The notes: generated by a model not told the origin, from the letters alone. DNA of 64,000 nt from Anaerolineales bacterium (GCA_026996855.1 JALWJZ010000004.1:4334-68333), one strand, 5' to 3'. Positions 3,270 to 60,600 are shown, counted from the stretch's first letter. Numbers and translations: made by a program.

Positions 3270-3902
3270 TTATCCATCCGGTGAAAGACGTTGGTGCACC
3301 ACCGGCCCCATGAGCGCGCAATAAGCCGAGGATTCCAGCCTTTCCAGGGCTTCGTAACCTGTGTCCAGGTCCTCGGCCAGGATGAAGATGCCGTGCCGCG
3401 GTGCCAGCACGGCCGCGGCGTAGCGACGCAGGATTTCGCGCTGGGCTTCCAGGGCTTGGGCAATCTGGTCGGCCAATGCCTGGGTGTGGGAGGGCGCGCC
3501 GGGAATGAGGGGCACGGTGCCGAACACGTCCGTGGCCTCCAGCATGGAAGGCAGGGGCACCCGGTGGGCACAGAAGACCAGGATGTTGCGGGGATGGGCA
3601 TGGACCACGGCTGCACCCTCGGGATAGAACTTCCGCAAGAGGGTGAAGTGGACCCGGGCTTCTCGCGAAACTTCGCCTTCACCGTCCAGCAAATTCCCCT
3701 CCAGGTCGAACACCAGGATTTGGCGCGGGTGCAACCGCCAGCGCCAGCGGCTCCCCGCGTAGCGCGGGGTCATGAGGATGAAATCGTCCAGGCGCACGCC
3801 TAAGTTGCCACCCGCGGCATCGGTCAGTTGTCGCTCGAACATCAGGCGCCCGATTTCCGTCATCAACTCGCGCGTTTCCTGGATGCGTGTGTACGAGATC
3901 AT
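3270..3902 (-). CDS. class II aldolase/adducin family protein
   Basis: ORF 3270..3941; ATG at 3902 with AGGAGG upstream. Motifs LTDAAGGNLGVR and VVHAHPRN (metal-binding His) are typical of the class II aldolase/adducin N-terminal domain. Confidence 0.75.
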   Translation of the reverse strand: MISYTRIQETRELMTEIGRLMFERQLTDAAGGNLGVRLDDFILMTPRYAGSRWRWRLHPRQILVFDLEGNLLDGEGEVSREARVHFTLLRKFYPEGAAVVHAHPRNILVFCAHRVPLPSMLEATDVFGTVPLIPGAPSHTQALADQIAQALEAQREILRRYAAAVLAPRHGIFILAEDLDTGYEALERLESSAYCALMGPVVHQRLSPDG

Positions 3903-4102
3903 GACCGCCTCCTTTGTATGGGTGCCCGTCTTCTGCAGCACCCTTTATTTGCTGGTGGGTGAATCCGCTCATCCGCGAACTCCCAGATTCGCCCATCGGC
4001 AATTGTATCCGAATCTGGATGGTGGCCTGGGCCTGGCCCGACCCTGGCTGTGATACACTTAGAACGTCCTGGTTGAAATCACCAAACCCGGAGGCGAGAC
4101 CC

Positions 4103-18677: not shown

Positions 18678-19120
18678 CCTACCGGGCCGGTCTGTAAGCC
18701 GCATTCTGTACGCCTCCGAGAGGGGGCACCCTCGAAGGCGCGGTGGTCATCTATCTAAGCGGCCTACCCGGGGCTCCAGGGGTGCGGGCCACACCCCGGC
18801 GGGAGCGTGCCCGCCTTCGCCCCTGCTTGGCCTTGCTCCCGGCGGCGGTTGCCTGGACGCCCGCCGGTTACCCGGCGAGCCGGTGGGCTCTTACCCCACC
18901 TTTTCACCCTTGCCCGCACCCGCCCGCTCTGCTTTGCTCGCCGTGATGCCGTGGGCCCTTACGACCCACAAGCGGGCGGGCCGCTGGCGGTCTGTTTCTG
19001 TGGCCCTTGCGCGGGGTTGCCCCCGCCCGGGTTTCCCCGGCGCCGTGCCCTGTGGAGTGCGGACTTTCCTCCCCTCCGGCAGCACCGAAGGGGCGACCAC
19101 CCGACCGACCCGGCCGGTTC
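18678..19120 (-). ncRNA. rnpB: RNase P RNA, bacterial type A
   Basis: The minus strand contains the universally conserved blocks GGAGGAAAGTCCG, ACAGAAACAGACCGCC, AGGGTGAAAAGGTGGGGTAAGAGCCCACC, GGAGCAAGGCCAAGCAGGGG, CCCGGGTAGGCCGCTTAGA and ACAGAATGCGGCTTACAG, in the same order as E. coli rnpB. The ends are approximate, set from P1 pairing of accggccgggtc with gaccggcccggt. Confidence 0.92.
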
Positions 19121-27218: not shown

Positions 27219-27288
27219 CCGTTCCCCTCTTGAGTTATTCGTGAGGTTTTCATAGGCGCCTTGAGGAAGGTCAAATCACCCCTTCAAT

Positions 27289-27365
27289 CGCCATCCGCTA
27301 TCTGCTATCTGCTATCTGCTATCTGCCATCCGCTATCTGCCATCTGCCATCCGCTATCTGCTATC
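27289..27365 (+). repeat. tandem heptamer repeat (GCYATCY) x11
   Basis: Reads gccatcc gctatct gctatct gctatct gctatct gccatcc gctatct gccatct gccatcc gctatct gctatcc. It lies between the flavin reductase stop (27218) and the methyltransferase start (27385). Confidence 0.9.
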
Positions 27366-27384
27366 CGCTCCCAGAAGGTGAGCC

Positions 27385-38231: not shown

Positions 38232-38319
38232 TGGTGCCGAAGGGGGGACTCGAACCCCCACGGGCGTAATGCCCACGGCGTCCTGAGCGCCGCGCGTCTG
38301 CCAATTCCGCCACTTCGGC
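38232..38319 (-). tRNA. tRNA-Leu (anticodon CAG), CCA encoded
   Basis: Minus strand reads GCCGAAGTGGCGGAATTGGCAGACGCGCGGCGCTCAGGACGCCGTGGGCATTACGCCCGTGGGGGTTCGAGTCCCCCTTCGGCACCA. Acceptor GCCGAAG/CTTCGGC, anticodon stem CGGCG/CGCCG with loop CTCAGGA, a long variable arm, and T arm GGGGG-TTCGAGT-CCCCC. Confidence 0.92.
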
Positions 38320-38371
38320 ACAGGCATCCTCTATTGTAAAAGGCGCCAACGGTTTGTCAAGTCGGGTGCGC

Positions 38372-38425
38372 GCTTTTCTCACGGGGACACAGAGCGCACA
38401 GAGAAAAACTTGATCTTTACCTCTG
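38372..38425 (+). repeat. CACRGAG-heptamer repeat element, partial copy
   Basis: Reads cttttctCACGGGGaCACAGAGcgCACAGAGaaaaact... and matches the left arm of the elements at 42089 and 57391. The right arm is degenerate. Confidence 0.6.
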
Positions 38426-42088: not shown

Positions 42089-42330
42089 GCGTTTTTTCAA
42101 AATCCATCAAAAGCCATCGCATTTTCTCACGGAGACACAGAGAACACAGAGAAAATTCTGGCCTTCTCCAGCAAGTACTCCGTGCTCTCCGTGGCTCTGT
42201 GTGCGCATTTATTAGAACATGCAAAACGCCTGGCAACTTCTTTTCTCACACGGAGAAAAAATTTTGGTCTTCTCCGGTGGATGCTCCGCGCGCTCCGTGG
42301 CTCTGGGGGAGGATGTAGCAAAACGCCCGG
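42089..42330 (+). repeat. CACRGAG-heptamer repeat element: one full copy plus a degenerate tandem copy (MITE/REP-like)
   Basis: 42089-42233 reads gcgttttttcaaaatccatcaaaagccatcgcattttctCACGGAGaCACAGAGaaCACAGAGaaaattctggccttctccagcaagtaCTCCGTGctCTCCGTGgCTCTGTGtgcgcatttattagaacatgcaaaacgcctgg. 42240-42330 repeats the core in degenerate form. Confidence 0.85.
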
Positions 42331-47037: not shown

Positions 47038-48156
47038 TCAGGCCCCTCCTTTCCCGGGGGAAAGGGATGGCGTGCGTCTGCGCCAGGACGCCAGCCGCCG
47101 CCACAGGGCCAGGGCCCGGGGCCGCGTGACCTGGTACAGTCGGTAGCCCCAGGGGTGGGGTGTCCAGTCCCACGGTCCCAGAGTGCGCACCACCACGCCG
47201 CCGAAGCCTTTTTTGAACCGGTACACGCCCCACAGGGGGTCCTGGGGGGAGAATTGGGTGGGCGCGCCCCACATGTCGTAGCGGGTGCATCCGTGGGCCT
47301 TGGCCCATTGCATGGCGGCCCATTGGAGCGCGTGGTTGGGCATCTTGTTGCGGTGCCGGGAAAGGGACATGCCGTGCAGATACCACCCGGTGGGGCCGAA
47401 GTGCACCAGCACCAGCCCGGCCACGGGTTCGTCTTCCACCCGGGCCAGGAACGGGGTGAGCATCCCGGCCCGGTGCAGGGTATGCCACAAATGCAGGTAG
47501 TAGGCCCTGGGCCGGATGGGGAAGCCGTCCCGCCGGGCGGTGGCCGCGTACATGTCGTACAAGAGGGGGAACTGATCGGGCGGGAGCCGGTCCACGGTCA
47601 CGCCTTTGCGGCCGGCCAGGCGGATGTTGTAGCGGGTTTTCTGCTTCATGCGGGCCAGGATGCGGTCCTCGGGTGGGGTGAGGTCCACCCAGATGGTGTT
47701 GGGGAACTGGACCCATTCGGTAGAAGGGCGCCACCGATTTGCGTGTAGCCATTTCAACAAATCCTGGCCCGGCGGATGCAGACACTCCTCCTCCGAACCG
47801 GGTTCGCCGAAGGCCACGGGCACGGGCGCGTCCATTTTCAAGTAGAGCAGGCCCTGGTCCCGGGCCCAGGCGGCCAGGTCGTGGAGCACCTCTGACCACT
47901 CGTCGGGCCGGTCTTCGGGCACCACCGGCCCGTGGGGGGTGTAGCCCACCCGCAAGCCGGGGCCCACCCGGCGGGTCAGCACCAGGGCCGCGGCCCGGGG
48001 CCCGCCGCGGCGGTACCACACCAGGAAGTGAGGCCGCCACCCCACCTGTTCCTGCTTGATGCGCGCCCAGGTGGCCGTTTGCAGGAACGGGGGGTGGGGG
48101 ACCAGATGAAGCAACAATTCGTCCCAGGCTTTTTCGCTCTGGGTAAACACGCGCAT
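47038..48156 (-). CDS. FemAB-family peptidoglycan interpeptide-bridge aminoacyltransferase
   Basis: ORF 47038..48261; probable ATG at 48156 (MRVFTQSEKAWDELL). Strings FLQTATWARIK, TRYNIRLAGRKGV and MPNHALQWAAMQWAKAHGCTRYDMWG match the FemX/FemAB pattern. Confidence 0.8.
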   Translation of the reverse strand: MRVFTQSEKAWDELLLHLVPHPPFLQTATWARIKQEQVGWRPHFLVWYRRGGPRAAALVLTRRVGPGLRVGYTPHGPVVPEDRPDEWSEVLHDLAAWARDQGLLYLKMDAPVPVAFGEPGSEEECLHPPGQDLLKWLHANRWRPSTEWVQFPNTIWVDLTPPEDRILARMKQKTRYNIRLAGRKGVTVDRLPPDQFPLLYDMYAATARRDGFPIRPRAYYLHLWHTLHRAGMLTPFLARVEDEPVAGLVLVHFGPTGWYLHGMSLSRHRNKMPNHALQWAAMQWAKAHGCTRYDMWGAPTQFSPQDPLWGVYRFKKGFGGVVVRTLGPWDWTPHPWGYRLYQVTRPRALALWRRLASWRRRTPSLSPGKGGA

Positions 48157-53344: not shown

Positions 53345-53451
53345 CGGCGGCGTGCAAGATGACATCGTATTTCCCACGTTCCGGGCCGGGGGATTGTCCT
53401 GTTTTCCCCAGACCTATTCCTTGGCGGAGGGGCCTTTGGAGCAGATCGCAT

Positions 53452-53523
53452 TTCCTCTGTGTTCTCTATGCCTCCATGAGGACATGCGATGGCTTTTGCT
53501 TCTATTGGATTTTGAAAAACACG
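53452..53523 (-). repeat. CACRGAG-heptamer repeat element, partial copy in inverted orientation
   Basis: The reverse complement reads gtgtttttcaaaatccaatagaagcaaaagccatcgcatgtcctCATGGAGgCATAGAGaaCACAGAGgaaatg. It matches the left half of the 42089 and 57391 copies. A further fragment (cacaaaggacacagaaattc) lies at about 53595-53615. Confidence 0.7.
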
Positions 53524-53622
53524 TGTGGCTGCGTCAGGCTTGAATATGGAAAGGCGCATGGGCAATGGCCCTCTAACAACGCGTTTGCCTGGTATTGAGC
53601 CGTACACAAAGGACACAGAAAT

Positions 53623-54126
53623 TCAGGGCTCGGCGTCCAGGGCTTCGATCAGGTGGCGGTAACGGCGCACGAACCAATGGGCGAGCAAGGGGCGATATTC
53701 CCGCTGGATTGCTTTGGGCAGGGCGAAGAAATCGCCGAAAATGACCCCGTGACAGCGCTCGGCGCCGCAGTTGCAGGGGATGGGGGTTCCTCCGGTGAGG
53801 TTGATGTTGTAGTCGAAGGTGATTTCTTCCCCCGGGGCGATGTCGCGACGGGCCACGATATAAATGTCGGAGCCCTCGTGCCATTCGTACGCGTTCGGAT
53901 CACAACTGTGATTCACATAGCGGTCCGGGAACCCCCACAGGAGCACCTTTCCATCGGGGAAACTGCAGTGCTCGATGCGTTCGCCGAGGTCTTCGCGCAG
54001 GGGTGCGTCCTCGGTGATTTCCCGCACGATGTTCACCCGGCGAATGCGTTCCCCGGCCCGAAAAGGGCGCGTGGCAAAGAGCCCCAGCCCCTCAATCGGC
54101 GACGGCTTGACCTCTACGCCATTCAT
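53623..54126 (-). CDS. SET domain protein (putative protein-lysine methyltransferase)
   Basis: GLGLFATRPFRAGERI, RYVNHSCDPNA, GEEITFDY, and post-SET-like Cys residues CNCGAERC. Confidence 0.85.
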   Translation of the reverse strand: MNGVEVKPSPIEGLGLFATRPFRAGERIRRVNIVREITEDAPLREDLGERIEHCSFPDGKVLLWGFPDRYVNHSCDPNAYEWHEGSDIYIVARRDIAPGEEITFDYNINLTGGTPIPCNCGAERCHGVIFGDFFALPKAIQREYRPLLAHWFVRRYRHLIEALDAEP

Positions 54127-54189
54127 GAGAACTTCCTTCCAGAAAATCGGCTATCCTTGCAGGAAACGCGTCTACGATCGGCAACCTAC

Positions 54190-54310
54190 CGCTAACGGCA
54201 CCAGTGTGAGGTCGCCGTCCAATGGCCTTTGCTGGCGCATAACCTTGGCCCGAATTTCCCACCCACGTTCGCGCGCGGCGCAGCCGCGTCCGCTGCACGC
54301 GGGGTTAGCC
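54190..54310 (-). other. attC-like structured repeat, copy A (the more degenerate copy)
   Basis: The minus strand starts with GGCTAAC and ends with GTTAGCG, so the termini GCTAAC/GTTAGC are exact reverse complements. It is a direct repeat of 56300-56425 (shared block ttggcc.gaaat..ccc.cc.acgttcgcgcg.ggcgc.gccgcgtccgctg.acgc). It begins 2 nt after the stop of the 489-aa gene. Confidence 0.5.
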
Positions 54311-54312
54311 CG

Positions 54313-55782
54313 CTAATTTTTCTCCTTATCCTCTTTAGAAAGCCTACCCTTTAACAGGGGCTCAAATAAATCGGCCAAATTCATTCCCAATTGTTCCTCT
54401 GCAAGTCCTTCAGGGATTTTAACCCCTTCAATAAATTTTTCTCCCACTTCTCGTGTCAATGCTACACCTACAAAGCCCAGGCGTTTGCTCCTAGTCTGCT
54501 CTGATTTTAGAGGCGGGAGAGCGATGAGTGTACTTGCGCCTGTCATCGCCGCCCCTATAGCTTGGTGTAAACGCTGACGAAGAAGGGCACGGACTGCCAT
54601 TCGCGGAAAACGAGCTATGCCCGTTGAGGCGCGCTTGACAGGATCTGAGGCACTATCCACCGTTCGTAAGAATTCATCAATGAAATATCGTGCACGTCGC
54701 CACATGTAAGAGCGGAAAGGAACATTTGTCAAGAAGATATCGGTGGATGCCGGGTCGAACCAAACCTCATCATAGGGGACACGCGTCTCTTCGCTCTGCA
54801 CTTTGTCCAGATACTCTCGATCCAGGTCTTCCAGCATCAACCCTGATGTCCAGCCATAATAACTTCCTTCCACAAGAAGAATGCGTTTGGGCTTTTGCTC
54901 TAAACCATGCAAAGCCTCCTCAAAAATCTCTCTCACGGACGCGATGACTTGCTCGTGACGCGCGTGAATATACTTTAACAACAGAGAGGCTTGCTCCCTC
55001 AAGTAAGGAATATCATTTGCCTTGTCCTTGAATACCTCAATGAAACCTTTCTGCCGACTCAACCCTATAATATCCTCCGGGGTGCTGTCCAGACGCACAT
55101 TGTCTATAAAACTGATTCCTGTTCCTGCATCTTTGAGTAACAAATTCCACGGATTGGGAAAGGTTCTAAAATTTCTAAGCAACCCCGGGGCATGGGTCTC
55201 AAACCATTCTTCGCAACTGGGACAGAAACAGGTCAGTTCAAGTCTACCGTTTTTTGCTCCCATTGGGAAAAGATTTACCACATCTAACACAACTCCCACC
55301 AATTTCCCTGGCGTATCTTTCGTAGCCATTCTGGCTATATCTATGCCAGTGCCAAGGATGGCCCCCACAATAGCACGGCTCATAGGGTTGCCAACGCATA
55401 CGGCATGGGAACTGTCGCCGGAAATGTCAACAATATGTAATGGTGCAGCGCGGATGAATTCTAGGGTGGGGTTAATAAGCAGGTAAATGTCGAGCCCTTT
55501 CTGCGCAAATGCATGTACTACATCTGAGAATTCCTTCAATCTATCTGACACTCGAGCATAGGGCGATATTGGCTCATCTAATCCACTCACCTTAAATACT
55601 AATCCTTCAGGATGGGAGACGGGTAAAACCACACCTTGAGGCTCTACTCCCCACATCTCTTTAAACTGTTTTATCACCTCATCGGGCTTCACGTACCGTA
55701 AGAATCCAAGGTGAGGGATATCTACCACATTGCTACCAGAATTCCCAGCCAGTATCTTTTGAATTTTGAATTGCCGAGTCAT
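54313..55782 (-). CDS. hypothetical protein, 489 aa, with a CxCxxC knuckle; function unknown (cassette gene 2)
   Basis: Clean ORF in AT-rich DNA. Its ATG overlaps the stop of the upstream gene (ATGA at 55779-55782). CFCPSC is at aa 185-190 (nt 55213-55230). An alternating strand/helix-like pattern (DIYLLINP, GVVLDVVNLFPMG, ILLVEGSYYGW) suggests an alpha/beta barrel. No family recognised with confidence. Confidence 0.8.
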   Translation of the reverse strand: MTRQFKIQKILAGNSGSNVVDIPHLGFLRYVKPDEVIKQFKEMWGVEPQGVVLPVSHPEGLVFKVSGLDEPISPYARVSDRLKEFSDVVHAFAQKGLDIYLLINPTLEFIRAAPLHIVDISGDSSHAVCVGNPMSRAIVGAILGTGIDIARMATKDTPGKLVGVVLDVVNLFPMGAKNGRLELTCFCPSCEEWFETHAPGLLRNFRTFPNPWNLLLKDAGTGISFIDNVRLDSTPEDIIGLSRQKGFIEVFKDKANDIPYLREQASLLLKYIHARHEQVIASVREIFEEALHGLEQKPKRILLVEGSYYGWTSGLMLEDLDREYLDKVQSEETRVPYDEVWFDPASTDIFLTNVPFRSYMWRRARYFIDEFLRTVDSASDPVKRASTGIARFPRMAVRALLRQRLHQAIGAAMTGASTLIALPPLKSEQTRSKRLGFVGVALTREVGEKFIEGVKIPEGLAEEQLGMNLADLFEPLLKGRLSKEDKEKN

Positions 55783-56276
55783 CTGCTGCCTCCCGATATA
55801 AATTTTTGTTTGGCGGTCCTGGTAAGCTCATACCTACCTGGTGATGCTTCTATTAGATACCCTTTTGATATCAGAGTGTCTAATACAAATTCGCCCAAAG
55901 CGGCATTGTTTTGCAGTGCTGGCGAGATACTCTGGATCAATTCTTCTCTTGTAGCTCTTTCGCTTTTACTGCTCCGCAGATAATGGTGGATATTTTGTAT
56001 AGCTCGAGTAACGAATTTCTTGGTGGTTTCGCTTTCCTCTAGATAATGGCCCGTAATCTTCTCAACAGCTTTCTCTACGGCTTCCTTTGTTTCTTTTGAA
56101 CTTCTAGATATTTCGGATTTAATTTTTTCGGTTTCCGCTCTCAACTTCTCAGCCTCTGCCCGCAGTTTTTCAACTTCAGCTGAACTTTTTTTTCTTGTAA
56201 ACAAATGGTTTGCAATAGCAACAAGGAGACCACCGATTACAGAAGTGATTAGCGCAGCTACTATTTCTTCAGACAT
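55779..56276 (-). CDS. hypothetical membrane-anchored coiled-coil protein with a winged-helix-like C-terminus, 165 aa (cassette gene 1)
   Basis: ORF 55779..56459; ATG at 56276 follows GGAGG. TM helix IVAALITSVIGGLLVAIANHLF. Repeated EKLRAEAEKLRAETEKIKSEI coiled coil. The C-terminal LISKGYLIEASPGRYELT resembles a wHTH wing. Confidence 0.75.
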   Translation of the reverse strand: MSEEIVAALITSVIGGLLVAIANHLFTRKKSSAEVEKLRAEAEKLRAETEKIKSEISRSSKETKEAVEKAVEKITGHYLEESETTKKFVTRAIQNIHHYLRSSKSERATREELIQSISPALQNNAALGEFVLDTLISKGYLIEASPGRYELTRTAKQKFISGGSR

Positions 56277-56299
56277 TTTACCTCCAAAGACCTCCAGCG

Positions 56300-56425
56300 G
56301 CCTAACGCCAGCGTCAGCGGCGCGGCTCCGTCGTCCAACGGTCTTTATAGCCGCATGATTTTTGGCCGAAATCCCGCCGACGTTCGCGCGTGGCGCGGCC
56401 GCGTCCGCTGAACGCTCGGTTGGGG
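56300..56425 (-). other. attC-like structured repeat, copy B (well-formed imperfect hairpin)
   Basis: Minus strand: CCCCAAC cg AGCGT t CAGCGG a CGCGGC [71 nt] GCCGCG CCGCTG ACGCT ggc GTTAGGC. The 3' box matches GTTRRRY perfectly. Stems pair 56301-06/56419-24, 56310-14/56412-16, 56315-20/56405-10 and 56321-26/56398-403. Unpaired bases A56411 and T56404 are both on one arm. Confidence 0.6.
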
Positions 56426-56455
56426 CGGGATGCCCTATAACCCTCAAAACACTGC

Positions 56456-56677
56456 TCACTCCTTTTCTCTGCCGCTATCCCTCTCTCGCTTTATCTCATC
56501 CACGATTTCCGCTAAACTCTTCTCGCCAAACAAGGCCTCGCGCTCTTCAGCGTACTCCCCAAACCCCGTAGTAAACTGCCGCAAAAAGCGCACAGCGTTT
56601 ACCACTCCTAATTCCCGATAAAGCGCCCAAAAGGCCTTGCGATTGACTTCGACTAACGGCTCAGCATACACGCTCAT
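56456..56677 (-). CDS. small protein co-transcribed with the PIN gene, putative antitoxin (73 aa)
   Basis: The ATG overlaps the PIN gene stop (ATGA at 56674-56677). Acidic C-terminus. No DNA-binding fold recognised; the call rests on context. Confidence 0.55.
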   Translation of the reverse strand: MSVYAEPLVEVNRKAFWALYRELGVVNAVRFLRQFTTGFGEYAEEREALFGEKSLAEIVDEIKRERDSGREKE

Positions 56678-57114
56678 CTTTCCAACTCCTCCGCCAATTC
56701 CACCGGCGTCACGACCTTTACCGCCAAATGCCCTAAACGCTTTGCTCTTTTCAGAAGTTTGTCATCGCTCGTGCAAAAATAATCCACCTTCCCTTTCTCT
56801 GCCAATGCCAAATGCAAAGCATCAAGGGGTTTGAAGCCCTCTTCCACCAAATGGTTTGCCCGTTCTTCTACCTCTTTCGTGATGACCAGGTGCTCTTTAG
56901 CCAACTCCAACACAGCCAGGGCATACTCCCGACGAACAGGGTGTGGATTGCGCCTCACCTCATAAACCAAGGCGTCTGATGAGACAATCTCCACTTGGCC
57001 ACGCTCACATAGCGCAAGGATGCCCAGAATCGCCTCGGCCTCAATGGCAATGCGCAAATGACTCGGCGTATCCAACGGCCTTTGAATCGCACCCACATCC
57101 AGATAGATCTTCAT
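56674..57114 (-). CDS. PIN domain ribonuclease (VapC-like toxin)
   Basis: The acidic quartet fits a PIN fold: D6 (IYLDVG), E in EAEAIL, D in PLDALHLALA, and D in FCTSDDKLL. Length is 146 aa. Confidence 0.8.
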   Translation of the reverse strand: MKIYLDVGAIQRPLDTPSHLRIAIEAEAILGILALCERGQVEIVSSDALVYEVRRNPHPVRREYALAVLELAKEHLVITKEVEERANHLVEEGFKPLDALHLALAEKGKVDYFCTSDDKLLKRAKRLGHLAVKVVTPVELAEELER

Positions 57115-57390
57115 GACTTCATTTTAGCATACCCTGGATGAAAGATCCCCCGCCCGCCTGACTATCAATTCTCCCGCTCTTTCGTCGCGAAACCGGCACA
57201 AACGCGGCGGATTTGTGTATACTATACCAAAATTTGCGCTTTATGCGGCGTGCATGCCAAAATCTTGCGGGTTTTGCGACGATTTTGTCGGATAATCCCG
57301 CGCTCGGGCGGTTTTCGCGACATCTTCTCTTTCGTACATCGCGCGCGACCACGCGCGCACGTTCCTTATCCGGTTTTCACGGGGGCACAC

Positions 57391-57547
57391 GCGTTTTTCA
57401 AAATCCAACAAAAGCGGCAAAACAAAAGCCATCGCATGTTCTCACGGAGGCACAGAGAACACTGAGAAAGTTTTGGCCTTTCCCAGCCATACTCCGTGTT
57501 CTCCGTGGCTCTGTGTGAGTATTTGTTCAAACATGAAAAACGCCTGG
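57391..57547 (+). repeat. CACRGAG-heptamer repeat element, full copy (MITE/REP-like)
   Basis: Reads gcgtttttcaaaatccaacaaaagcggcaaaacaaaagccatcgcatgttctCACGGAGgCACAGAGaaCACTGAGaaagttttggcctttcccagccataCTCCGTGttCTCCGTGgCTCTGTGtgagtatttgttcaaacatgaaaaacgcctgg. It is collinear with 42089-42233. Confidence 0.85.
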
Positions 57548-57639
57548 GGATAGGGCCATTTATCTTGATGGAAAACGGACGGTGTGGGATAAATCAAAAC
57601 CCGGCCCCTCGTGGGGCCGGGTTTTGCCGGGAGCGCTGC

Positions 57640-60600
57640 TTATCGCCCCGAGCCGTTGCCGCCGTCCTTGGGTGGGGTGAAGTGCTGGGCCAGGGCCTGG
57701 TACATGGCCCAGCGGCGCTTCACGTCTTCTTCCAGCAGGCTCAGCAGGTGCTCGGCCTCCTCCGGCCGCATGCGCACCAGTTGGCTGAAGCGGCGCTCGT
57801 TCAGCACGTATTTCTCCAGGGGTTCCTTGATCTTGGAGTCGATTTGCAGCGGGTTCTTGCCCTGGAGGAGGCGCCGCGGGTCGAACCGGATGAGGGGCCA
57901 GTAGCCGCTGAGCACCGCCAGTTTCTGCTGTTCCGCGCCGTAGCGCAGGTCGTAGCCGTGGGCGATGCACGGCGAGTGGGCAATGATGAGGCTGGGGCCG
58001 GGGTAGGATTCCGCCTCCAGGAAGGCCTTGACCGTGTGGGTGTCGTTGGCGCCCATGGCCACCGTGGCCACGTACACGTGTCCGTAATTCATGGCCATCC
58101 AGGCCAGGTCCTTCTTGGGCGTGGGCTTGCCGGCCACGGAGAACTTGGCCATGGCCGCGCGCGGGGTGGCCTTGGAGGTCTGGCCGCCGGTGTTGGAGTA
58201 CACCTCGGTGTCCAGCACCAGGATGTTCACGTCGTAGGGCAGGGAGAGCACGTGGTCCAGGCCGCCGTAGCCGATGTCGTAGGCCCAGCCATCGCCGCCC
58301 ACCAGCCACACCGTCTTGCGGACCAGGTAGTCCGCGATTTGCAGCAGGTCCAGCACTTCGGGGGTGGGCTCCATCTCTTGCAGGCGCTGGCGCAGCGCGG
58401 TCACCCGCTCCCGCTGCTTGCGGATGCCCTCTTCGGTGGATTGGTCCGCGTGGAGGATTTCGTCGGCCAGTTCCTGGCCCACTTCCGCGGCCAGGCGCTT
58501 GAGCAGGGTGCGGGCGTATTCCGTCAGTTTGTCCACCGCCAGGCGGATGCCCAGGCCGAACTCCGCGTTGTCCTCGAAGAGGGAGTTGTTCCACGCGGGG
58601 CCGCGACCATCCCGTCCGTAGGCCCAGGGCGTGGTGGGATGGTTGCCGCCGTAAATGGAGGAGCAGCCCGTGGCGTTGGCCACGATGAGCCGGTCGCCGA
58701 AGAGGCGGGTCAGCAGGCCCAGGTAGGGCGTTTCGCCGCAACCCGCGCACGCGCCGGAAAATTCAAAGAGCGGCGTGAGCAATTGGTTGTCCTTGACCGA
58801 AGACACCTTGATTTGCTCGCGCGGGGGTTCGGGCAGTTGGTTGAAGAAGAACTCCCAGTTGCGGCTTTCCCGCTCCCGGATGGGGGCCAGCGGACGCATG
58901 TTGATGGCCTTTCGGCTGGGGTCTTGCTTGTCCACCGCGGGGCAGAATTCCACGCACAGGCTGCAACCCGTGCAGTCCTCCGCGGAGACCTGGATGGTAT
59001 AGGCCATGCCCTTGAACTGGCGCCATTTGGCCTCGGTGTGTTTGAACCCTTCGGGTGCGTTTTCCAGGTATTTGGGGTCGTACACCTTGGCCCGGATGAC
59101 CTGGTGCGGGCAGATGATGACGCACTTGCCGCACTGGATGCACAGGTCCGGCTCCCACACGGGGATTTCCAGCGCGATGGCCCGTTTCTCGTAGCGGGTG
59201 GTGCCGCTGGGGTAAGTGCCGTCCGCGGGCAGTTTGCTCACGGGCAGCAGGTCGCCCTCGCCGGCAATCATCTTGGCGATGACCTCTTTGACGAAGGGCG
59301 GCGGGTCGTCCACCACGGGCGGGCGCAGGTCGAAGGTGGAGGTCACCCGACCGGGCACGGGCACTTCGTGCAGGTGGTCCAGCGCGGCGTCCACCGCGGC
59401 GAAGTTCTTCTGCACCACGTCTTCGCCCTTGATGCCATAGGTCTTGCGGATGGCCTCTTTGATTTTGGCAATGGCCTCGTCTTTCGGCAAAATGCCGCTG
59501 ATGGCGAAGAAGCAGGTTTGCAAAATGGTGTTGATGCGTCGCCCCAGGCCCACTTCCCGGGCCACTTTGTAGGCGTCCACCACGTAGAAGCGAATCTTCT
59601 TGCGGATGATTTCTTCCTGGATGGTCTTGGGCAGGTAATCCCACACCTCCTCGGGGCCGTAAGGGCTGTTCAAAAGGAAGACCGCACCCTCTTCCGCGTG
59701 CTTGAGCACGTTCATGCGCTCCAGGAAGTGGAACTGGTGGCAGGCCACGAAATTGGCCTTTTGGATGAGGTACGGGGCCTTGATGGGCCGCGGCCCGAAG
59801 CGCAGGTGGGAAACCGTCACCGTGCCCGCTTTCTTCGAGTCGTACACGAAGTACCCCTGGGCCCAGTTGGCCGTTTCCTCGCCGATGATTTTGATGCTGT
59901 TCTTGTTGGCGCTCACCGTGCCGTCCTGGCCCAGGCCGTAGAACAGCCCCCGGAAGCGGTCGGGGTCGTGGAAGCGCTCCACTTCCATGGTGAAGTCGGG
60001 GTCGTACTTCAGGTAATCCAGGCTGGTGTGGGTCACGTCGTCGATGATGCCGATGGTGAAATGGTTCTTGGGCCGCTCCTTGGCCAGTTCGTCGAAAATG
60101 GCCTTGACCATGCCGGGGGTGAATTCCTTGGAGGAAAGGCCATAGCGCCCGCCGATGACGATGGGGCGTTGCTCGAAGGGCGCCTCGCCCCGGGCGAAGG
60201 CTTCGTCGATGGAGGCCACCACGTCCAGGTACAGGGGTTCGGCCAGGCTGCCGGGTTCCTTGGTGCGGTCCAGCACCGCGATGGCCTTGACCGTAGGCGG
60301 CAGGGCCTGGATGAAATGCTCCAGGGACCAGGGCCGGTACAGCCGTACCCGCACCAGGCCCACCTTTTCCCCCTGGGCCACCAGGTATTCCACGGTTTCG
60401 GAAACGGTTTCGGACCCGGCGCCCATGATGACGATGACCTGCTCGGCATCGGGCGCGCCTTCGTATTCGAAGAGGTGGTATTGGCGCCCCGTCAACTGGG
60501 CGAACTTGTCCATGTACTTCTGCACGATGAGGGGTGTGGCCAGGTAATAGGGGTTCACCGTCTCCCGGGCCTGGAAGTACACATCCGGGTTCTGGGAGGT

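Follow-up and report, generated by a model that had tools for sequence, protein, structure and literature searches.

A probable two-site attC cluster from a degraded integron cassette array in an Anaerolineales bacterium

The DNA analysed in this study is a stretch of 64,000 nt (hereafter the window) from an Anaerolineales bacterium (GCA_026996855.1), in which the region from 53.4 to 57.8 kb was read directly. This region contains two GC-rich direct repeats of approximately 125 nt, copy A (54190-54310) and copy B (56300-56425), which are very probably attC sites of integron cassettes. The locus would then be a two-site CALIN (cluster of attC sites lacking an integron integrase), that is, a degraded chromosomal cassette array. 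A preliminary description of the same DNA, made from its sequence, had suggested that the repeats are attC sites and that they belong to a CALIN or to the distal portion of a chromosomal integron. That proposal is supported by arrays of the same repeat in other genomes, by an integron integrase gene (intI) linked to the repeat, by covariation of paired positions, by the recognition of class 1 integron attC sites with a model built from the repeat, and by the lack of intI in the window.

Two or more attC sites that have no intI close by make up a CALIN in the definition of Cury et al. 2016 (PMC4889954), who found 279 of them and counted Chloroflexi among the phyla carrying integrons. Copies A and B both lie on the plus strand, 2.1 kb apart and thus within 4 kb of each other, and there is no intI in the window. 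The preliminary description had also stated that integrons are poorly described in this lineage, which is only partly the case: Chloroflexi integrons had already been reported, but full-text searches of one literature library found no paper specifically on integrons of Anaerolineae. With integrons known in Chloroflexi and CALINs being common, this locus is an ordinary new example.

The repeat pair and its AT-rich island

Pairwise alignment of copy A with copy B gave a mean column identity of 81%, flanks included, and a shared 31-nt core, ACGTTCGCGCGYGGCGCRGCCGCGTCCGCTG, occurs exactly twice in the 64 kb compared to 0 occurrences expected by chance. The boundaries found by nhmmer and cmsearch were 54182-54312 for copy A and 56297-56425 for copy B, both on the plus strand. 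Two direct repeats of about 120 bp had been recognised here by eye, and the alignment, the duplicated core and the positions from both programs agree with that observation. When the window was scanned with a covariance model of the repeat family (see below) with filters off, copy B scored 98.1 bits (E = 4e-24) on the plus strand and 26.9 bits on the minus strand. Copy A scored 68.5 bits, with about 11 pairs that are broken or non-standard, mostly in the 5' arm. No Rfam family matched either repeat at gathering thresholds.

The island around the repeats (54300-57500) has a GC content of 43-52% compared to 62-68% in its surroundings, in keeping with the earlier remark that the enclosed DNA is far more AT-rich than the host. 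Every gene in the island is encoded by the minus strand, and the order of transcription is a PIN-domain gene, an open reading frame (ORF) of 73 aa, copy B, orf165, orf489, copy A and a SET-domain gene. Besides copies A and B, the full model with filters off found nothing in the window better than E = 0.3, and the search for a third attC beyond SET or upstream of PIN found none. Read on the gene strand, copy A begins with GGCTAAC 2 nt past the TAG at 54313-15, copy B begins with CCCCAAC 30 nt past the stop codon of the 73-aa ORF, and 23 nt that include GGAGGT separate the end of copy B from the ATG at 56276. Direct reading thus reproduced the distances of 2, 30 and 23 nt to stop and start codons that had been given previously. 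The description of the repeat ends as RYYYAAC-like and GTTRRRY-like stands in that such boxes are present, but CCCCAAC departs from RYYYAAC at its first base.

Copy B, which would be the attC of the cassette containing the PIN gene and the 73-aa ORF, is structurally intact by DNA folding and by family covariation. On the plus strand it consists of an R' box (GCCTAAC, 56300-06) with a predicted crossover between A56305 and C56306, a spacer (56307-09), an L stem in which 56310-26 is paired with 56398-416, a variable centre of 71 nt, and an R'' box (GTTGGGG, 56419-25). Direct reading and the DNA fold both pair 56301-06 with 56419-24, including one G-T, followed by a 3/2-nt spacer and by pairing of 56310-14 with 56412-16, 56315-20 with 56405-10 and 56321-26 with 56398-403, leaving the extrahelical bases A56411 and T56404 unpaired. 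Every pair in the base-by-base scheme that had been proposed for copy B proved correct. The DNA fold of this site has a dG of -40.2 kcal/mol (z = -2.2).

Copy A would be the decayed attC of the orf165-orf489 cassette. On the plus strand its R' box (CGCTAAC, 54190-96, with a predicted crossover between A54195 and C54196) and its 3' arm, with GTTAGCC at 54304-10, are intact. The family alignment shows that its 5' L arm is mutated and approximately 6 nt shorter, and because of this the L stem is unable to form. DNA folding of both repeats gave the stem of R and L boxes with extrahelical bases for copy B and left copy A unfolded. The broken pairs and the missing fold of copy A (z value given below) are what had been anticipated when it was described as having lost part of one arm and folding less well.

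The repeat family and its integrase

When species-representative genomes were scanned for the central motif of the repeat, 77 matches resulted, and true full-length copies were found only in L032, L049 and L062, which are metagenome-assembled genomes (MAGs) labelled Anaerolineae or Anaerolineales. The rest consisted for the most part of chance matches in coding sequence, of an AFARGAAA peptide and of an insertion sequence in Dehalococcoidia. Scanning metagenomes for the right arm, which is conserved (GCCGCGTCCGCTGNAYGCNNGGTTRG), gave at least 120 contigs, and the family counts reported here rest on the matches listed. The nhmmer profile of the repeat found at least 297 copies on at least 124 contigs. 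Among the matches listed, 89 contigs had at least two copies, none of the 89 had copies on both strands, and the densest array had up to 9 copies within 10 kb. The 140 inter-site segments among these matches had a median spacing of 964 nt (5-95%: 747-2802) and grouped into 117 unrelated protein clusters; their median GC content was 46%, compared to 69% for the sites. When only ORFs filling at least 70% of a cassette were counted, 37 were on the predicted top strand and 1 on the other, and at 80% or more the numbers were 32 and 0.

Two of the MAGs illustrate the arrangement. In L062, one AT-rich ORF of 289 aa lies between two sites, one of which directly follows the stop codon while the other ends 14 nt before the start codon. 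The order in L032 is a site, a gene of the nucleotidyltransferase antitoxin type, a SET gene, a decayed further copy and then host genes. In integrons, an attC follows the 3' end of an ORF that is usually single and lacks a promoter, and successive sites share the orientation of the ORFs at intervals of about one gene. With at least 297 copies that are co-oriented and one ORF apart, the family therefore behaves as a cassette array with cassette-like spacing and sites at ORF ends, rather than with the scatter of repetitive extragenic palindromes (REP) or miniature inverted-repeat transposable elements (MITE), whose many copies are dispersed over ordinary intergenic sites in either orientation.

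The structure of the family was derived from an alignment (A2) of 142 distinct copies oriented as the plus strand of the window. The AAC and GTT columns are conserved at 96-99%, and the consensus ends are GCCTAAC and GTTAGGC. These form a 7-bp R box, which is followed by a 3-4-nt spacer, a 4-bp stem, a bulge, a 6-bp stem (CAGCGG/CCGCTG), a bulged T and another 6-bp stem; the bulged L stem was also predicted independently by RNAalifold. The extrahelical bases are in column 131 (A, C or G) and column 124 (T, more than 90% conserved), both on the 3' arm and opposite AAC, with the CAGCGG/CCGCTG stem between them. Under this structure 90.6% of the cells are paired, compared to 29-47% when the partners were slid. 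Additionally, 12 pairs have double changes, amounting to 118 cells compared to 60 in shuffles, and 0 of 500 shuffles reached the observed value. Compensatory variants include CGCGGC/GCCGCG, CGGGGC/GCCCCG, CACGGC/GCCGTG and CCCGCC/GGCGGG. Such changes are expected of attC sites, in which the structure is conserved and the sequence is not. Columns 30/120 are CG in 94 copies and GC in 38 (Fisher p = 1e-26), and columns 29/121 are GC in 121, AU in 10 and CG in 3. The order of R box, spacer, L box and extrahelical bases on one arm had been put forward as attC architecture from the window, and its conservation across the family together with the covariation bears this out. The attC architecture was thus correctly recognisable by eye.

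On their bottom strand, attC sites carry R' (RYYYAAC) and R'' (GTTRRRY) boxes with an invariant AAC/GTT, the spacers have no conserved sequence and in most cases measure 5-6 nt on each arm, and the extrahelical bases lie opposite AAC with the first and last 6 bp apart, the distal one being a conserved T (PMC5027507). The extrahelical bases of the family match these features, and therefore the plus strand of the window is the bottom strand. This assignment agrees with two independent markers, ORF direction and intI position. The variable columns of the R box (10/142 and 8/144) are unlinked (p ~0.1), as would be expected if repeated crossover at AA|C swaps the outer half of R', which is owned by the neighbouring cassette.

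A reciprocal test used a covariance model (R1) that was built from A2 alone and run on integrons from a plasmid collection. On a class 1 integron, the top four hits of R1 were its four attC sites, on the correct strand and with the bulges aligned (oxa2 26.5 bits, aadA1 25.1, aacA4 14.1 and GIM-1 11.3). R1 also detected two sites, on the right strand, among genes upstream of the intI of a cyanobacterial plasmid.

A first lead came from a tblastn search with an IntI1 sequence, which singled out three contigs. Genes at 2668-3672 of L118 and 1742-2713 of L167 match the NCBIfam model TIGR02249 ('integron integrase', cut-off 265 bits) over its full length, with 460 and 458 bits. Compared to the L118 protein, IntI1 of public plasmids has 54.7% identity and an annotated integron integrase from a cyanobacterial plasmid has 60%. 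The intI gene is upstream of the cassette ORFs in both contigs and divergent from them, which is the layout of a complete integron.

Three further observations concern the contigs with intI. L124, a 77-kb contig of 65-70% GC, has an internally deleted intI pseudogene at 3676-4017 (only residues ~95-167 and 285-329) beside an AT-rich cassette and an attC, and is an example of integron decay in the lineage. The gene that adjoins intI in L167 (346 aa; 779-1653) has a homologue of 67% nucleotide identity at 47168-48042 of the window, in another arrangement and approximately 6 kb away from the island; judged by sequence, this pair may be a sign of related hosts. Cassettes with a Schlafen/AlbA_2 domain are located in the arrays beside intI in L118 (141-857, minus strand) and L167 (4291-5517, plus strand), which hints at a defence-type cassette pool.

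Cassette genes, flanks and strain comparison

The first cassette in the window (56306..57131, minus strand) is truncated at its 5' end and consists of the PIN-domain gene (57114-56674; Pfam PIN, E = 3.6e-7), the overlapping 73-aa ORF (orf73, 56677-56456) and copy B. The two genes look like a toxin-antitoxin pair with reversed gene order. The same cassette recurs in L134 (91% nucleotide identity) and L097 (85%), in each case with different downstream neighbours. Homology between the window and L134 does not reach past 57131, which is 17 nt upstream of the start codon of PIN (57114), and the next attC of L134 starts approximately 25 nt beyond the point that matches 57131. What lay upstream of the first cassette of the window is therefore lost, together with the 5' junction. 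Beyond 57131 the array runs into a REP-like element and then a PFOR gene. In the attC of this cassette the variable centre differs among the window (56307-56397), L134 (3818-3897) and L097 (1940-2030) while the right arm is shared. Variable centres seem to be exchanged between sites, perhaps via homologous recombination between the conserved arms.

The second cassette (54196..56305, minus strand) has two genes, orf165 (56276-55779, 165 aa, with a transmembrane segment and a coiled coil) and the overlapping orf489 (55782-54313, 489 aa), and its own attC, copy A. Sequence searches of PADLOC, NCBIfam, Pfam and PDB gave no function for orf489, orf165 or orf73, and orf489 matched no family in Pfam, NCBIfam or PADLOC. 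The orf489 family (~480-500 aa) has at least 108 homologues with a patchy distribution over several phyla, with members in Planctomycetota, Acidobacteriota, Streptomyces, Ca. Kentrum and others, and no Pfam model; its invariant residues are C129, C185, F186, C187 and C190. The AlphaFold model of orf489 is confident (pLDDT 88), and a fold search returned only weak resemblance to GH35 and GH14 TIM-barrel glycosidases (TM 0.35-0.39). A different genome, L203, also carries the orf165-orf489 module beside rsgA, and its orf489 protein is 76% identical; upstream of the module is a decayed attC, and the R'' box alone is left at the stop codon of the orf489 homologue. Exact-protein look-ups of the window genes found an identical sequence only in two metagenomes. 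No sigma-70-like promoter signal above chance was detected in the island. Expression would need internal promoters, which is plausible for the toxin-antitoxin-like pair.

The SET-domain gene (53623..54126, minus strand; Pfam SET, E = 1.4e-19) abuts the distal end of the array. In strain L212 (GCA_027053115.1), whose flanking host genes are 94% identical to those of the window, the SET gene has 94.9% nucleotide identity, like the flanking host genes. A full-model scan of the window found no attC downstream of it. Probably the SET gene is a resident one, or else a cassette of great age. L032 has a distant homologue of SET (33% identity) that is located between attC copies.

At the MFS-SET locus of L212 there is an attC that is intact (99.6 bits), but the cassette beside SET is another one, of 135 aa. 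The comparison of the two strains was reached through MFS homologues; an empty site had also been sought through close homologues of PFOR, whose synteny is not conserved. Two strains that are 94% identical and have different cassettes at this locus indicate that there has been turnover since their divergence. Homology between the window and L212 breaks at 54032, inside the 5' end of SET, which suggests a junction from rearrangement at the distal end of the array. The SET protein is 167 aa in the window compared to 134 aa in L212, with about 31 extra N-terminal residues (window 54033-54126; L212 4587-4592). On the gene's other side, 89 nt of the window (53438-53526, half a REP-like copy) are replaced in L212 (2551-4086) by 1.5 kb between MFS and SET, which contain an ORF of 181 aa and an alpha/beta-hydrolase gene of 343 aa and have no detectable attC.

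The REP-like elements form a second, palindromic repeat family of REP/MITE type that is unrelated to the attC family and has the core CTCACGGAGRCACAGAGAACACAGAG ... CTCCGTGYTCTCCGTGGCTCTGTGTG. Copies are located at 38360-38424, 42093-42233, 42254-42324, 53452-53551 (minus strand) and 57362-57560 (plus strand), and two of them flank the cassette island as inverted repeats. This family has no match in Rfam and is absent from the contigs with the attC family. Elsewhere in the window, RNase P RNA of bacterial class A (18679-19112, minus strand, 177.5 bits) and tRNA-Leu(CAG) (38232-38319, minus strand) are ordinary host genes, and a 7-nt unit (GCTATCT/GCCATCC) is repeated in tandem in approximately 14 copies at 27276-27373.

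Competing readings and comparison with known systems

If the repeats act as attC sites, the bottom strand, which here is the plus strand of the window, would fold into an imperfect hairpin, and IntI would bind its R and L boxes and cut between A and C of AAC, exchanging strands with attI or another attC. Promoterless units of ORF plus attC would thereby be inserted, excised and reshuffled (PMC5027507, PMC4889954). There are indirect signs of exchange at the R box, namely its unlinked halves and the same cassette having different neighbours. We infer that the cassettes of the window arrived through IntI-mediated recombination. The array in this strain would now be largely a fossil, because there is no intI in the window, copy A is without an L stem and the PIN cassette is without its 5' junction. 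With copy A decayed and the PIN junction lost, neither visible cassette has two competent sites. For annotation, this means that 54.2-57.1 kb is cassette DNA that was horizontally acquired and varies between strains.

Several results weigh against this conclusion. The spacer of the family is 3-4 nt per arm (GAT+N and N+GG) compared to the usual 5-6 (PMC5027507), with columns 17/136 unpaired in 99 of the 142 copies, and the first extrahelical base is A, C or G while it is usually G in canonical sites. There is also no bottom-strand bias: the mean dG was -35.2 kcal/mol for the bottom and -35.3 for the top strand, the bottom strand was more stable in 112 of 242 sites, G:T pairs averaged 1.69 and 1.76, respectively, and the GC skew was approximately 0. 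However, greater stability of the bottom strand, which stems from a bias in purines and G:T pairs, is a tendency of attC sites in mobile integrons and not a strict requirement (PMC5027507). When ORFs of any coverage were counted, their orientation was only 93 to 44. Copy A gave no stable DNA fold (z ~0). The assignment of the family to Anaerolineae hosts is likewise inferred, from three MAG titles and the 67% nucleotide similarity of one housekeeping gene to L167.

The lack of intI belongs here as well. As had been stated before, no IntI is encoded in the window: tblastn searches of the 64 kb for intI or a remnant with both IntI1 and the L118 protein gave nothing below E = 0.8, and an intI pseudogene sought in 57115-57640 and in the whole window was not found. 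The DNA covered by these searches extends from the array for 7 kb upstream and for 54 kb downstream. In a complete integron intI and attI lie by the first cassette, whereas the window has no intI and the upstream junction of its first cassette is missing.

It is possible, though on balance unlikely, that the locus is the distal end of a complete sedentary chromosomal integron whose intI and attI are elsewhere and serve in trans, or were split off by a recent rearrangement. The different cassettes at the MFS-SET locus of strains with 94% identical flanks, the intact state of copy B and the existence of complete integrons with the same attC family (L118 and L167) are all consistent with this, as is the finding that about half of CALINs sit in replicons encoding IntI (Cury et al. 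2016, PMC4889954). However, the array upstream of the PIN gene is cut at 57131, where it passes into a REP-like element and the PFOR gene, copy A is decayed, and there is no intI in the 7 kb upstream or the 54 kb downstream.

More doubtful is a further proposal, in which the array at the MFS-SET locus is still exchanging cassettes in trans with an IntI elsewhere in the genome. It would then belong to a large sedentary integron system in Anaerolineae of high GC content, whose sites work with a short spacer, leave the first extrahelical base unconstrained and lack a bottom-strand bias. If this is true, the choice of strand would depend only on where the extrahelical bases lie, and this would be a large sedentary system in Anaerolineae that, to our knowledge, has not been specifically described.

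The remaining explanations do without cassette recombination, and each is very improbable. The hairpins could act in RNA, as terminators, stabilisers or a riboregulator, so that the array pattern would be operon punctuation; the sites do directly follow stop codons, and they fold strongly and equally well on both strands. However, on the gene strand the stem is not followed by a T tract, Rfam has no match, copy B scores 98 bits on the non-transcribed strand compared to 27 on the transcribed strand, the sites adjoin IntI, and the unlinked R-box halves and the cassettes with swapped neighbours show DNA exchange at the site. An accessory terminator effect of attC hairpins may nevertheless exist. 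Even less credit can be given to host intergenic repeats of REP/MITE type unrelated to cassette recombination. The repeats are GC-rich, palindromic and intergenic, and the host has a separate REP-like family flanking the island, but only two copies are present in 64 kb, both within the AT-rich island, the copies on at least 124 contigs are strictly co-oriented, one ORF apart and at the 3' ends of ORFs, and the family is linked to intI and its model recognises class 1 attC sites. Finally, although two direct repeats bracketing an AT-rich segment could be the attL and attR of a single 2.1-kb island integrated by a phage-type or ICE-type (integrative and conjugative element) integrase, this is scarcely credible for repeats that are 125 nt long and only ~75-80% identical, enclose no integrase, occur up to 9 times among the matches listed in tandem arrays around unrelated genes, and include copy B, which in other contigs is the own 3' site of the PIN cassette that lies outside the bracket.

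The data presented here therefore favour attC sites in a degraded cassette array. The family as a whole comprises attC sites of approximately 130 nt in at least 297 copies, with more than 100 distinct families of cassette genes and its own IntI. Its cassette pool, which includes toxin-antitoxin pairs, Schlafen/AlbA_2 proteins and the widespread uncharacterised 490-aa family, could be mined for defence or adaptive functions.

Compared to the CALINs of Cury et al. 2016 (PMC4889954), the locus is similar in that two attC sites on the same strand are 2.1 kb apart, under the 4-kb clustering distance, with no intI nearby, and in that the cassettes are not resistance genes, have no assigned functions and in one case are toxin-antitoxin-like. 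It differs in that it was called with a model built from the family and comparative evidence rather than with IntegronFinder, and in that one of its sites is visibly decayed. The VCR sites of the Vibrio cholerae superintegron, of which VCR2 is 133 bp (PMC5027507), resemble the sites of the family in length (~125-135 nt), in their large variable centre and in their homogeneity within a lineage. The arrays are also alike, being long, co-oriented, variable between strains and made up mostly of unknown genes. Unlike VCR sites, the family is apparently hosted by Chloroflexota/Anaerolineae of high GC content, and its sites have two rather than three extrahelical bases, a 3-4-nt spacer and no bottom-strand bias. 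Class 1 attC sites (aadA1, blaOXA-2, aacA4 and blaGIM-1) share with the family the AAC/GTT of the R box, the L stem, the distal extrahelical T and the 6-bp stem between the bulges; R1 aligns with them with the bulges in register, and the family IntI is 54.7% identical to IntI1. However, class 1 sites are 57-80 nt long with a tiny centre, their first extrahelical base is usually G, and their cassettes are resistance genes on plasmids and transposons.

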